A DNA stretch of 64,000 nt from a virus (IMGVR_UViG_3300029288_004596:96001-160000), one strand, 5' to 3'; shown: positions 38,973 through 50,838, counted from the first letter of the stretch. Notes: generated from the letters alone by a model not told the origin. Translations and numbers: made by a program.

Positions 38973-39485
38973 ATGGATATTGCTAAGAAACTGGCCGAGA
39001 TAGTGGCCCCCTACAACTTTAAGCTTGAACTGAGAACTGAAGGAATCTACTTAGTCTTTCCTGACGAGACTGTCTCTGACAAGCTTAAAGGGTCAGCTAT
39101 AGAAGAAGTGGTTGACGGTGCCCTAGATATTGTTTCTGAATACTATACTAGTAGAATGAAAGGTTCACATAAGATTGTCACGGAAATAGCTCACACTAGA
39201 GACGAACTTATAGGCTGCAGGGCTGGTGATGTATACAGGGAACTCAAAAGCATCATACCAGTAGAGTGTGGCATTATAACCCAAGCCTCTTCAGGCGTCA
39301 TTAAGATATATTGTCATGGAGTCTTTACTGACATTAGCGTTCAGAGATACTACCTCCAGCATGGCAAGGATAGGTATATCTCAGCTATCAAAGAAGATGT
39401 GGCCTTTCTTATAGAAGACGGACTTCGTAAGCATGAGGTGGCGGTTGAGAAATCCAAGGAGGTCTTGGAGTTATTGAGGTCATGA
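38973..39485 (+). CDS. Hypothetical protein
   Basis: AAGGAG RBS. Confidence 0.65.
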   Translation: MDIAKKLAEIVAPYNFKLELRTEGIYLVFPDETVSDKLKGSAIEEVVDGALDIVSEYYTSRMKGSHKIVTEIAHTRDELIGCRAGDVYRELKSIIPVECGIITQASSGVIKIYCHGVFTDISVQRYYLQHGKDRYISAIKEDVAFLIEDGLRKHEVAVEKSKEVLELLRS

Positions 39486-39835
39486 GGATAGAGGACTCCC
39501 CAGCATATGATCTCTTTGACCATACTATCTTAGTCGCTGTATATGAAGGGGCGGATATTATCTGGGATAATTCTGGGGTGACACTCTTTGAAATCCTTGC
39601 TTACTTCCCAGATAAAGGGTTTAGTTTCAGGTCCTTCGCCTGTCAGTCCTTGGACTCAGTGGAACTTTATGCCAAGATTACAGACCGCATGTCCTTCGTC
39701 CCTACCAAGGATGAGATGTTGTTCCACTTGATATGGTGCCTTGATAGGCCAAGTATAACTATAGTGTCCAACTCCCTTATAAACTGGTGTGCCAGAAGGG
39801 AGGCTATACTTCCTGAGGAGAACTACGAAGAATGA
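39482..39835 (+). CDS. YEE-family paralogue 1
   Basis: ends ENYEE. Confidence 0.8.
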   Translation: MRIEDSPAYDLFDHTILVAVYEGADIIWDNSGVTLFEILAYFPDKGFSFRSFACQSLDSVELYAKITDRMSFVPTKDEMLFHLIWCLDRPSITIVSNSLINWCARREAILPEENYEE

Positions 39836-40179
39836 GAGTAGAAGGATCCCCTGTGTACAGATACTTTCCTGAGTTGGCTCTTAAGGTATATAAGGATGTA
39901 GATATCGTTTGGGACGCTTCCACCTTGGGGATCTGGAATGTCCTAGCTTACTTCCCTGATAGGGGCTATGGCTTCAGGTGCAACTCTGTTGACCAGGACG
40001 CCAAGATAAATTTCATAACAGGTTACATGGATTTTATCAGAGACCCTGATGATGTCATTGAGTATATGATGGAGCATGTTTCTGAAGAACACTTCGAGGA
40101 TTTTGAGAAGACCTTTTCACAGTGGCTTGAAAATAAGGCCGTAAGGGATATGTTGGCGGAAGGAGACTACGAGGAATGA
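39832..40179 (+). CDS. YEE-family paralogue 2
   Basis: ends GDYEE. Confidence 0.8.
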   Translation: MRVEGSPVYRYFPELALKVYKDVDIVWDASTLGIWNVLAYFPDRGYGFRCNSVDQDAKINFITGYMDFIRDPDDVIEYMMEHVSEEHFEDFEKTFSQWLENKAVRDMLAEGDYEE

Positions 40180-40526
40180 ATGTAGAGGATTCCATTATAT
40201 ATGAGATTCTCCCCAAGCTTGCCGTTGACGTATACTTGGAAGCTGATATTATTTGGGACATCTCAGATAGGAAAGTCCTGGAAGTCTTCGCTTACTTCCC
40301 CGACAAGGGTTTTGGTTTCCGGTGCTGTCTTATAGGGGACATTATATCTAAGTCTTATGTCACAAATAACATGAAGTTTGTAAAGACCCCCGCTGACGCT
40401 ATTCAGTACATGAGGAGGTCCCTTACTCCTGTGAGTTTTGCCTCCTTCCAGAAGGCCTTCGTCAAATGGATTGACAAAACTAACTATGTCGAGGGCATGA
40501 TAATAGGAGGAGACTGGGAAGAATGA
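40176..40526 (+). CDS. YEE-family paralogue 3
   Basis: ends GDWEE. Confidence 0.8.
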   Translation: MNVEDSIIYEILPKLAVDVYLEADIIWDISDRKVLEVFAYFPDKGFGFRCCLIGDIISKSYVTNNMKFVKTPADAIQYMRRSLTPVSFASFQKAFVKWIDKTNYVEGMIIGGDWEE

Positions 40527-40867
40527 AAATAGAAGACTCTCCAATATATGGACATGCCAGCCATGAGTCCCTGAATAGGGTCTATGGGTCAGCCGATATC
40601 ATATGGGATATCTCCACTAAGGGTTACCTTAAGATCCTGGCTTACTTTCCAGTTAGCCAGCTCTTTGGTTTCAGGTATTGTAAGATAAGCAGCAACCTTA
40701 CCGCATCTTATATCTTGAACTACATGCATTGGGAGAAGACCCCAGACTCCATGGTCAAGTATGTGAGGGGACTGGCATTCCCAGGAGATGTTGCTGGTTT
40801 TATAACCGCCTTTGCCAAGTGGATGGCTGATAATGCCTATGGAGTTGAGGAGAACTGGGAAGAATGA
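40523..40867 (+). CDS. YEE-family paralogue 4
   Basis: ends ENWEE. Confidence 0.8.
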   Translation: MKIEDSPIYGHASHESLNRVYGSADIIWDISTKGYLKILAYFPVSQLFGFRYCKISSNLTASYILNYMHWEKTPDSMVKYVRGLAFPGDVAGFITAFAKWMADNAYGVEENWEE

Positions 40868-41214
40868 ACATCAAAGATTGCGCTATAGCCAAGCTGGGAA
40901 CAGTGGGTTCTACCATAGCAGAGATATATGGCACAGAGAATGTGATCTGGGACTTTTCCCATGTGTCTTATCCTAGCTCTGTAGAGGTTGACATCATGTT
41001 CTTTATGGGTGGGCGTTATGTCCATAAAAGAGTGTGCATAGCCTGTCCAGCCTATGTCATTGATATCCTGGAGGATATGACTCTCCATGATATAGTCCTT
41101 GATAGTAAGGAAGCTTTATTAAAGTATGCTTTTAATCTGGACTCTAGCCTGGGGTTTAAGCATTATACCTCAGTGGTTGAGTCTTTGTGTCTCCAAGGGA
41201 ACTATGAGGAATGA
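40864..41214 (+). CDS. YEE-family paralogue 5
   Basis: ends GNYEE. Confidence 0.8.
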   Translation: MNIKDCAIAKLGTVGSTIAEIYGTENVIWDFSHVSYPSSVEVDIMFFMGGRYVHKRVCIACPAYVIDILEDMTLHDIVLDSKEALLKYAFNLDSSLGFKHYTSVVESLCLQGNYEE

Positions 41215-41567
41215 ATATTAAAGATTGTCCAGTGTATCAGCGATGGTCCAAGCCCACCTTATCCAAGGTGTATGAGGGCGCTGATATTATATGGGATGGC
41301 TCCAATGAAGAGCTCTTAATACTCTTAGCTTATTTTCCTGATAAGGGCTTTGGTTACAGAGCCTGTTCTTATAGCGTTTTGACTGAGAGATCTCTCCTGA
41401 AGAACATGCAGTATGAGGAGAACATCAACGACATGATTGAATACCTCTCAGAACGAGTTTCTACTGAGGAGATGGATACGCTGTCTGAACGTCTTGCCAT
41501 GTGGCTCATTAAACATAACTACACTATCATAGATGGAAAACTTGAAACTGGAAACTGGGAGGAATAA
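41211..41567 (+). CDS. YEE-family paralogue 6
   Basis: ends GNWEE. Confidence 0.8.
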   Translation: MNIKDCPVYQRWSKPTLSKVYEGADIIWDGSNEELLILLAYFPDKGFGYRACSYSVLTERSLLKNMQYEENINDMIEYLSERVSTEEMDTLSERLAMWLIKHNYTIIDGKLETGNWEE

Positions 41568-41569
41568 TT

Positions 41570-49432: not shown

Positions 49433-49614
49433 ACATAAAATTAACTGATAAACAATCTGAACTGCTATTGTCCCTGGTCTATAACTCTTATAAGTTTACC
49501 AAGGACCCCGACTGCGCCAGGTCTCTGGAGACTCTGTATGATTCCCTTAAGGATCAGGTGAGCCCTGAAGGGTCTTCTTGTCTGGGGATGCTAAGACATC
49601 TGTTTGAGGTGTAG
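49429..49614 (+). CDS. Hypothetical protein
   Basis: Starts MNIK at an array junction, unrelated body. Confidence 0.55.
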   Translation: MNIKLTDKQSELLLSLVYNSYKFTKDPDCARSLETLYDSLKDQVSPEGSSCLGMLRHLFEV

Positions 49615-49616
49615 AC

Positions 49617-49802
49617 ATGGACTATTGTGTATGGGAACAGTTCTCTGAACCAGTCACTAATGAGGGACATATAGGATATGCTCCCTCCTGTATGGCTCCA
49701 GTGATGGTGCTGCCAGAGGAGGATATAGCTGAGATATGCCCCCACTGTGATAAGCAGATACTCAGGAGGAAACATGTGCCTGACCATAGAGAACGCTCCT
49801 GA
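49617..49802 (+). CDS. Small Cys-containing protein
   Basis: CPHC motif, GAGGT RBS. Confidence 0.55.
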   Translation: MDYCVWEQFSEPVTNEGHIGYAPSCMAPVMVLPEEDIAEICPHCDKQILRRKHVPDHRERS

Positions 49803-50088
49803 CTATGTCATGGAGCAAGTCCAGGATATCTTTAAGGACTGTGAGATAATAGTCAACAAGTCGCATGTCTGCGGTCTGACTATTGTGGTAAATATTCTAG
49901 GTTTTGAGGCTCCTAGCACCTTTAAGTTGCTATACCATTGCTTTTCTGAGCCGCAGACCCTTTATAAATGCCTGAGAGTTTATAGTTCCACTATAGAACT
50001 TGTCGACGCTGTCTTTGATTTCCAGGGGAATGATGAACTTGAAGGTTTTGTCAAGTGGCTAGCTACTAGGGGTGATTATGAGAGTTGA
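49774..50088 (+). CDS. YEE-family paralogue 22 (divergent)
   Basis: ends GDYES. Confidence 0.65.
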   Translation: MCLTIENAPDYVMEQVQDIFKDCEIIVNKSHVCGLTIVVNILGFEAPSTFKLLYHCFSEPQTLYKCLRVYSSTIELVDAVFDFQGNDELEGFVKWLATRGDYES

Positions 50089-50482
50089 AGAGTCTAAGTG
50101 TTATAGTTTGTTTTCTAAGGAAGCCCAGAAGGCTTTATCCTCTAAGTATGCTGGGGCTGACATTATTTTGGATCTATCTATGGAATGCTCTTCCAGGGAA
50201 CGAAAACTTACTACGTTCTCCTATCACCCACAAAACGATATGGTAAGATTTGTTGGGGTCTATCTGTACTATAATGCAAGTCCAGAGCATGTGGAGAGCA
50301 CCATAGACCAATATGGGAAATCATTTAGGTTAGGATTGAATCCTTGTCTAAGGGATATAATGCACCACCCTTTTATTTGTGAGGAGCCAGTACAGACTGT
50401 ACTGGATTCCTGGATGATGTCCAAAGGATACCTTCCTACAGGATATTTTGAGTGGGTCCTGTCTGAAGACTTAGAGGAGTAG
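50078..50482 (+). CDS. YEE-family paralogue 23
   Basis: SYHPQND subfamily, ends EDLEE. Confidence 0.8.
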   Translation: MRVEESKCYSLFSKEAQKALSSKYAGADIILDLSMECSSRERKLTTFSYHPQNDMVRFVGVYLYYNASPEHVESTIDQYGKSFRLGLNPCLRDIMHHPFICEEPVQTVLDSWMMSKGYLPTGYFEWVLSEDLEE

Positions 50483-50484
50483 CC

Positions 50485-50838
50485 ATGAGTCTTAAAAGTT
50501 GTCCTGAGCTATACAATCAGATCTACCCCCTCATTGGCTACGAAGTCATATGGGATGACAGCTGTGGCAGCGACAGAAAACTCTTTACCGATATGTTGAT
50601 GTATAATATTGTGACTCGCAAGTTTGTTCACTGTGATAAGAGTTTTCATCAGCCCACTCCTGAGGTTTTTAGAGCTGAGTTCTTCTTCCACTTGAAGGTT
50701 TATGATTTCCCGGAAGAAGTCTTGTATTTCCTGGGACCCACGCACACTAAAGTCCTTAAATCTTGGCTTGTATCCAATGGCTGGAAGAAGAGAAGGTGGG
50801 GCAAGTGGCGTCCCCCAAAGATAAGTTATGAGGAGTAA
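50485..50838 (+). CDS. YEE-family paralogue 24
   Basis: VIWDDS core, ends ISYEE. Confidence 0.75.
   Translation: MSLKSCPELYNQIYPLIGYEVIWDDSCGSDRKLFTDMLMYNIVTRKFVHCDKSFHQPTPEVFRAEFFFHLKVYDFPEEVLYFLGPTHTKVLKSWLVSNGWKKRRWGKWRPPKISYEE

Follow-up and report, generated by a model that had tools for sequence, protein, structure and literature searches.

Why would a single phage carry two dozen versions of one small gene, and why do nearly all of them end in the same few residues? This question is raised by a stretch of 64,000 nucleotides (the window; bases 96001-160000 of the virus record IMGVR_UViG_3300029288_004596), in which open reading frame (ORF) listing and start assignment revealed 24 paralogous + strand genes of 104-135 amino acids (aa) at 39482-50838. 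Our results show that these genes form an orphan family that is real and intact, and that their C-terminal tail, with the consensus [G/E]-[D/N]-hydrophobic-Glu-Glu-COOH, is dual-coded, as a ribosome-binding site (RBS) and as a peptide. The same tail ends three other families of this phage, and its presence on unrelated folds suggests an undescribed docking label. The record measures 216,899 bp, is an estimated ~93% complete and encodes a large terminase that shares only 28% identity with its counterparts in cultured jumbo phages (Synechococcus B3/B23, RaK2 group); its source is an uncultured 217-kb tailed phage. Positions refer to the window unless they are given as genome positions or belong to another record.

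An intact family of 24 old paralogues

The phage genome has two arms. The structural genes lie on the - strand, and the opposite arm, on the + strand, encodes sigma factors, RNase H, RecA, a clamp loader, DNA polymerase A, a ThiF-type E1 and a methylase, and holds the 24-gene family. The family occupies three blocks, at 39482-41567 (six genes), 43700-49432 (15 genes) and 49774-50838 (three genes), with the following members:

39482..39835 (+): member 1, 117 aa, AYFPDKG subfamily, tail ENYEE
39832..40179 (+): member 2, 115 aa, tail GDYEE
40176..40526 (+): member 3, 116 aa, tail GDWEE
40523..40867 (+): member 4, 114 aa, tail ENWEE
40864..41214 (+): member 5, 116 aa, tail GNYEE; in block 1 but clusters with the 48663 clade
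41211..41567 (+): member 6, 118 aa, tail GNWEE; TAA stop, with the ATG of an RNA ligase gene 2 nucleotides (nt) downstream
43700..44080 (+): member 7, 126 aa, SYHPxEN subfamily, tail GDFEE
44077..44457 (+): member 8, 126 aa, tail EDLEE
44454..44840 (+): member 9, 128 aa, tail GEIEE
44837..45220 (+): member 10, 127 aa, tail GDLEE
45217..45594 (+): member 11, 125 aa, tail RDLEE
45591..45977 (+): member 12, 128 aa, tail GNYEE; the following gene starts upstream of its Glu-Glu codons
45967..46353 (+): member 13, 128 aa, tail ENYEE; start at 45967 (ATG) or 45940 (TTG)
46350..46748 (+): member 14, 132 aa, tail GGYEE; the most divergent N-terminus
46745..47110 (+): member 15, 121 aa, tail GDYEE
47107..47475 (+): member 16, 122 aa, GTG start, tail GNYEE
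47472..47879 (+): member 17, 135 aa, tail DNYEE
47876..48283 (+): member 18, 135 aa, tail GDYEE
48280..48666 (+): member 19, 128 aa, SPIAKLG subfamily, tail GNYEE
48663..49049 (+): member 20, 128 aa, GTG start, tail GDYEE
49046..49432 (+): member 21, 128 aa, tail GNYEE; the copy used for the structure model
49774..50088 (+): member 22, 104 aa, the shortest, without the C-terminal hairpin; variant tail GDYES
50078..50482 (+): member 23, 134 aa, tail EDLEE; SYHPxEN clade but 4.5 kb away from the rest of it
50485..50838 (+): member 24, 117 aa, basic (isoelectric point 8.8), tail ISYEE

When every frame of 20 aa or more across positions 38000-52500 was scanned with a hidden Markov model (HMM), the result was exactly 24 matches and zero fragments or remnants. 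Four features are conserved in at least 90% of the aligned copies: an M-x-I/V-E/K-D/E-S/C start, a Y-x-x-x-D-I/V-I/V-W-D-x-S strand, a Y-x-P motif and a late Trp. The conserved columns are thus the start, the D-V-V-W-D-x-S strand, Y-x-P, W-L and the tail, and residues 50-100, which comprise the fourth strand and the following helices, are mostly variable. HMMs built from single subfamilies retrieved the other subfamilies at E values of 1e-5 to 1e-19, with no other match below E 0.2 among the 1454 six-frame ORFs of the genome. Since the subfamily models detect each other, the common origin of the genes is supported independently of their termini and does not come from a circular profile.

In the tree, one split alone has 100/100 support, that which sets the SYHPxEN group (43700-45594 and 50078) apart from all other members; the AYFPDKG group has 91/93 and the third group is weaker. 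Neighbours in the array are usually the closest kin, the exceptions being the genes at 50078, which belongs with the 43700 group, and 40864, which belongs with the 48663 group. Between pairs of members, amino-acid identity is 21% at the median and 53% at most. At the four-fold sites that members share, identity is down to 0.33, where saturation would give 0.28, so that the duplications must be old. Every one of the 24 frames has stayed open, and this requires each copy to be under selection. Note that near-saturated synonymous sites make site-wise dN/dS, the ratio of non-synonymous to synonymous change, not meaningful, and it was therefore dropped. The net charge of the members spans -22 to +3: most members are acidic (-3 to -22), one is neutral and one basic, which led us to reject DNA mimicry of the Ocr type as a property of the whole family.

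These results agree with the original prediction, made from the DNA sequence of the window, of 24 divergent paralogues that are all intact despite their divergence and that arose by repeated tandem duplication on one fold. Its three local subfamilies are real: the SYHPxEN and AYFPDKG groups are recovered, the third is less well supported, and two genes are displaced from their kin. The ending that it described as fixed, xx(Y/W/L/F/I)EE-stop, is present as hydrophobic-Glu-Glu in 23 of the 24 members, the gene at 49774-50088 ending in YES.

The same tail ends three unrelated families

Genome-wide, 43 ORFs of at least 40 aa end in hydrophobic-Glu-Glu, of which 41 fall into four + strand arrays: 23 are members of the family described above, seven are SH3/KOW-like, eight are zinc-ribbon mini-genes and three belong to a third additional array. 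Among called genes, Glu-Glu is the final dipeptide in 32, against 1.4 expected (p 7e-32). At genome 169240-172413 (73240-76413 in window numbering, and so outside the window), the SH3/KOW-like array holds seven tandem paralogues of 138-172 aa, which start with C-P-F-R-V-G-D and end with (G/D/E)-D-L-E-E. Its model, with a predicted local distance difference test (pLDDT) score of 90.5, is mostly-beta and SH3/KOW/Tudor-like, and differs from the alpha+beta fold of the 24-member family. The best structural match was the RNA-polymerase-binding Tudor domain of UvrD/PcrA, at a Z score of only 5.7, and no homologues of this array were found outside the phage genome.

The second array comprises eight overlapping zinc-ribbon mini-genes at genome 181286-182728, each with two C-x-x-C-x-G-x-G motifs, and the third comprises three genes of ~100 aa at genome 184681-185596, of unassigned fold; both end in [D/N/S/T]-[Y/W/L]-E-E. 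When the profile of the 24-member family was compared with each of the three other arrays by hhalign, the aligned part was the last 5-6 residues only, and none of the three has the M-K-I-E start. In both models, that of member 21 and that of the SH3/KOW-like array, the tail is unstructured and of lower pLDDT. Close variants also end proteins that are not members, namely GDYEK (a membrane protein, 51109-51654), EDLES (75 aa, 52403-52630) and SYWEK, the first two being encoded just downstream of the array. By sequence and model, the tail thus has the properties of a short linear motif: it sits on unrelated folds, it is constrained at the protein level and it is flexible.

The peptide takes precedence in overlapping genes

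Eighteen of the 24 members end in ATGA or GTGA, so that the stop overlaps the next start, and the genes are most likely translated as coupled polycistrons. In the 25 tail-bearing junctions with this geometry, the Glu at -2 is spelled GAA in 16 and GAG in nine, and GAA makes up 51% of the choices genome-wide. Here the two Glu codons are separated from the ATG by 0-1 nt, a distance too small for them to serve as a Shine-Dalgarno (SD) sequence. An SD-like GGAG is provided by the G-[D/N] codons, 10-13 nt upstream of the ATG, whereas the optimum for ordinary genes of this genome is 5-7 nt. Since the SD-like words are placed at 10-13 or 0-1 nt instead of at this optimum, the peptide takes precedence over an optimal RBS.

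The hydrophobic residue at -3 is spelled by six unrelated codon types (TAY, TGG, CTN, TTR, TTT and ATA). Moreover, 86 other genes of the genome with an ATGA or GTGA overlap have unrelated ends without the tail, which places the constraint at the protein level. Genes at the end of an array, with no start within 8 nt, retain the tail, for example those ending at genome 172413 and 185596. Away from the tail ends, GARGAR followed by a stop occurs 24 times, against 21 on the reverse strand, ruling out a free-standing DNA motif in this genome. Judged by these patterns the tail is under protein-level selection, and above all it is the occurrence of the same tail on three unrelated families that argues for a peptide. 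Conservation at the nucleotide level only, the possibility set against the original prediction, is contradicted by the free use of GAA and GAG, the mixed -3 codons, the tails of terminal genes and the unrelated families. As in known coupled overlapping genes with the SD inside the upstream gene, the SD lies here in the last codons and codon choice follows the geometry; coupling alone, however, demands no particular residues, and the 86 other coupled genes end differently.

Homologues and fold of the family

The family did not match any described protein; a match of this kind, to a protein with known function, is what the original prediction had named as counting against it. Scans of ten members gave no match in Pfam-A or PHROGs (best Pfam E 0.032, short of the cut-offs; best PHROG E 0.056), and megablast and tblastn against 50,697 phage records gave none either. 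The ESM Atlas search returned nothing useful, a word-indexed search of 5.8 billion proteins found self matches only, and the HMMER family profile, run against 1.84 billion protein representatives, found its own members and one 615-aa protein. We rejected the latter as a homologue because its four repeats match just a 40-residue helical 'x-W-L-x-x-N-G-Y' module (E 6e-6; hhalign probability 33%). The closest relative of the phage is a 210,951-bp record, IMGVR_UViG_3300037067_003400, with 117 of 320 genes in common at 25-65% identity; a metagenome scan with the RNA ligase gave no closer one. The family is absent from this relative and from four more distant related phage records. Its absence from the closest relative represents the turnover typical of accessory genes.

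An AlphaFold model of member 21, with the 24 paralogues as alignment, reached a pLDDT of 93.3. Helices at the N-terminus lead into a four-stranded sheet, which is followed by two to three helices and a beta-hairpin; the final eight residues (last pLDDT block, mean 68) are unstructured. The best Foldseek matches were at E 0.3 in the PDB and at E 0.018, with a template modelling (TM) score of 0.44, in BFVD; a wide VIA-align search gave at best a Z score of 4.5 over 67 residues, to generic helix-on-sheet (NTF2/cystatin-like) arrangements. On this model, the predicted fold is new or unassignable.

A candidate docking label and its rivals

We propose that the family consists of diversified binder-like accessory proteins that would be docked to one partner via their flexible di-Glu end, and we put the probability of this reading at roughly 40%. 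The family is a lineage-specific tandem expansion of small, mostly acidic alpha+beta proteins in the non-structural arm. Each copy combines a conserved hydrophobic core (the N-terminal helix, the four-stranded sheet with its D-I-I-W-D-x-S strand, the helical hairpin with the late Trp, and the beta-hairpin) with a diverged surface and the flexible tail. The tail would be a short linear docking motif for one shared partner, of the phage or of the host, that grips the free di-Glu carboxy-terminus and the hydrophobic residue at -3, and the variable bodies could give different target or ligand specificities. Together with the three other tail-bearing arrays, the genes would make up a library of interchangeable accessory or host-interaction modules handled as a group. 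We infer the tail docking, the identity of the partner and any role in host takeover or counter-defence; the original prediction had read the genes as a diversified effector or anti-defence repertoire whose tail would dock to a common partner.

A wider version, which we consider somewhat doubtful, makes the tail an address label, by analogy with the poxvirus ankyrin/PRANC adaptors on SCF ligases. One partner, maybe the ubiquitin-like (Ubl) cassette of the phage or a host machine, would bind through it more than 40 small proteins of binder type, drawn from four unrelated folds, as interchangeable specificity modules, and the tail would then be one case of genome-specific C-terminal tags in large phages. 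The tail-bearing proteins amount to about an eighth of the phage genes (41 of about 330) and are without relatives anywhere. If the tail is indeed a docking label, identification of its reader would place ~40 orphan proteins in a working context in one step, and the tail peptide would be a handle on accessory proteins that are beyond the reach of sequence and fold searches.

Several results weigh against docking. In junctions with a one-base overlap of the next ATG, or with that ATG 2-4 nt further downstream, the Glu at -2 is spelled GAG in 11 of 11 cases (compared with the ATGA/GTGA-overlap junctions, Fisher p 6e-4), and GAGGAR then stands at SD distance, so the tail is partly an RBS, as the original prediction had claimed. 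This removes the three sites (41567, 50482 and 50838) at which retention of the tail had been taken as proof of a peptide constraint: at each of them the next ATG follows GAGGAR at 5-7 nt, and GAGGAR functions as the Shine-Dalgarno sequence. The same codons thus carry RBS and peptide motif, and the case shows junction geometry to be a way to separate both. In addition, the independent observations are four families, not 41 genes, and every tail-bearing gene sits in a chained array, so that array junctions may account for the tail. As to a possible reader, Pfam scans of ~40 genes shared with the closest relative showed replication, transcription, Ubl-E1 and methylase functions and no obvious peptide-binding module. 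TPR_12 is absent from the phage, as is RimK (PF08443), for which control genomes gave matches, and a search that was not exhaustive found no WD40 or TPR reader.

The ends found in the closest relative point the same way. Its commonest final dipeptide is Y-E, observed 12 times against 0.8 expected, and the twelve x-Y-E ends are carried by unrelated proteins (for example in 53107-56185, 68122-69148 and 106206-108752 of that record). Two of these are Macro-domain proteins (Pfam) whose genes come shortly before that of the orthologous RNA ligase and fill the slot that members 1-6 occupy here; the slot is therefore variable. The codons of x-Y-E are TATGAGTAG in seven of the twelve, GAG is used in nine of 12, against 34% genome-wide (p 0.004), the stop is TAG in eight of 12, against 24% (p 0.002), and an intergenic copy of TATGAGTAG at 55755, 14 nt before a start, is RBS-like. 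Because of this nucleotide bias and the intergenic copy, we withdrew the x-Y-E ends as proof of a conserved tag. The ending may largely be an RBS-type DNA element, and the intergenic copy may be the remnant of a deleted gene end. The more distant relatives showed no such tail, and an excess of Glu-Glu ends in one AT-rich record was rejected as compositional (K/D/P-EE).

Taken together, the codon preference at near-start junctions (11 of 11, against 9 of 25 at overlap junctions), the GGAG of the G-[D/N] codons ahead of the next ATG, the confinement of the tail to chained arrays and the bias seen in the relative would fit a tail with no dedicated reader. It would then be a junction device of chained arrays, spread by junction recombination, which supplies an SD and a stop-start overlap for termination-reinitiation, and maybe an acidic cap that favours solubility and protects from host proteases attacking non-polar C-termini. 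We regard this as rather unlikely, since the commonest geometry shows synonymous variation of Glu codons next to the ATG and uses its SD at a suboptimal distance, the hydrophobic class at -3 is kept via unrelated codons, 86 overlap-coupled genes manage without the tail, and terminal genes keep it with no gene to serve. Moreover, with four-fold sites near-saturated, recombination as the only means of inheritance would not have kept a junction from decay. A signal for turnover or modification seems improbable to us: the tail could be a C-terminal degron by which a host or phage protease or adaptor clears the array proteins on schedule, or a substrate or competitor of a RimK-type glutamate ligase. 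The tail is flexible and exposed in the models and the phage has a ThiF match (Ubl/E1), both of which are compatible with such a role. Ribosomal protein S6 ends in Glu-Glu, and we know of no counterpart in it of the hydrophobic residue at -3 or the D/N at -4 of the tail. RimK is a bacterial enzyme that recognises and extends C-terminal glutamates, acting on S6 (PMC10375531, PMC4741518), and in eukaryotes a di-Glu C-terminus has been proven to act as a degron, recognised by CRL4-DCAF12 (PMC9929631, PMC11044963). RimK with S6 is the closest bacterial reader that we can report for a Glu-Glu end, and its gene is absent from the phage. The sole ClpP-type gene lies in the structural arm and probably encodes the prohead protease, and singleton early genes should carry a timer as well, whereas only array families are tailed.

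It is very improbable that the tail is a virion-loading signal, by which the proteins would be packed in the head and ejected with the DNA, as are the internal proteins of T4. In T4, these proteins are encoded in a variable locus. They share an N-terminal capsid targeting sequence that directs them to the head (PMC3012670), and this precedent, in which unrelated accessory proteins carry a single short terminal peptide that one T4 machine reads, is a phage parallel to the tail described here. The ClpP-type protease of the structural arm would fit with loading, and the conserved M-K-I-E-D/E-S start could, as a speculation, be a processing site. However, the T4 signal is N-terminal, is cut by the prohead protease and belongs to head genes, whereas the tail is C-terminal and acidic, on proteins of the non-structural arm; the arrays lie in the replication and transcription arm, on the strand opposite to the structural genes and far from the head module. 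Loading ~40 different small acidic proteins would be unparsimonious, and the other three tail-bearing families lack the M-K-I-E start.

The docking reading has parallels among eukaryotic receptors. EEVD-TPR carboxylate clamps are readers of acidic C-termini, and in them, as in CRL4-DCAF12, a free acidic C-terminal pair, to which a preceding residue contributes, docks one receptor to many unrelated proteins. Both systems are eukaryotic and share only the motif with the tail, which is here predicted from genes. As regards the expansion itself, Bacillus phage G has a ~35-copy zinc-ribbon family produced by lineage-specific tandem expansion (PMC7824862), and gene amplification acts as counter-defence in T4 (10.1101/2022.04.14.488369). 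Like these, the family consists of many tandem small paralogues in one lineage with a presumed role in host or defence conflict. It differs in that its duplicates are old, all intact, at most 53% identical and near-saturated at synonymous sites, and in that they share a terminal peptide with unrelated families.

Neighbouring genes and related phages

Blocks 1 and 2 of the family are separated by an RNA ligase gene and two ORFs that gave no matches, and blocks 2 and 3 by two 61-aa ORFs. The RNA ligase, at 41570-42568, is of the Rnl2 type with a PHA02142 OB domain (Pfam 1e-24 and 2e-21; PHROG 1e-56), and its orthologue in the closest relative, which the two Macro-domain genes precede instead of family members, is 55% identical. 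A similar layout was seen in the phage contig Ga0164243_10001033, where at least nine tandem paralogues lie upstream of an RNA ligase (4707-8057). These belong to a different family with the same architecture: they share the head M-(K/N)-N-I-L-x-I-x-E-Y-D and the end K-E-Q-Y-D-x-L-Y-G-x-H. Two distant relatives, at ~29% GC, have a low coding density when read with translation table 11 (195 genes in 205 kb) and may use a different genetic code.

Scans for sigma-70 promoters and terminators gave nothing interpretable. The ClpP-family protease gene (62 bits) is located at genome 64732-65202, on the - strand, within the structural arm. Finally, one of the ORFs of the region, at 43164-43703 (179 aa), has a sub-threshold Pfam match to Cas_VVA1548 (E 9e-4; 19.8 bits against a cut-off of 25), and the only sizeable intergenic gap of the region sits just before it.

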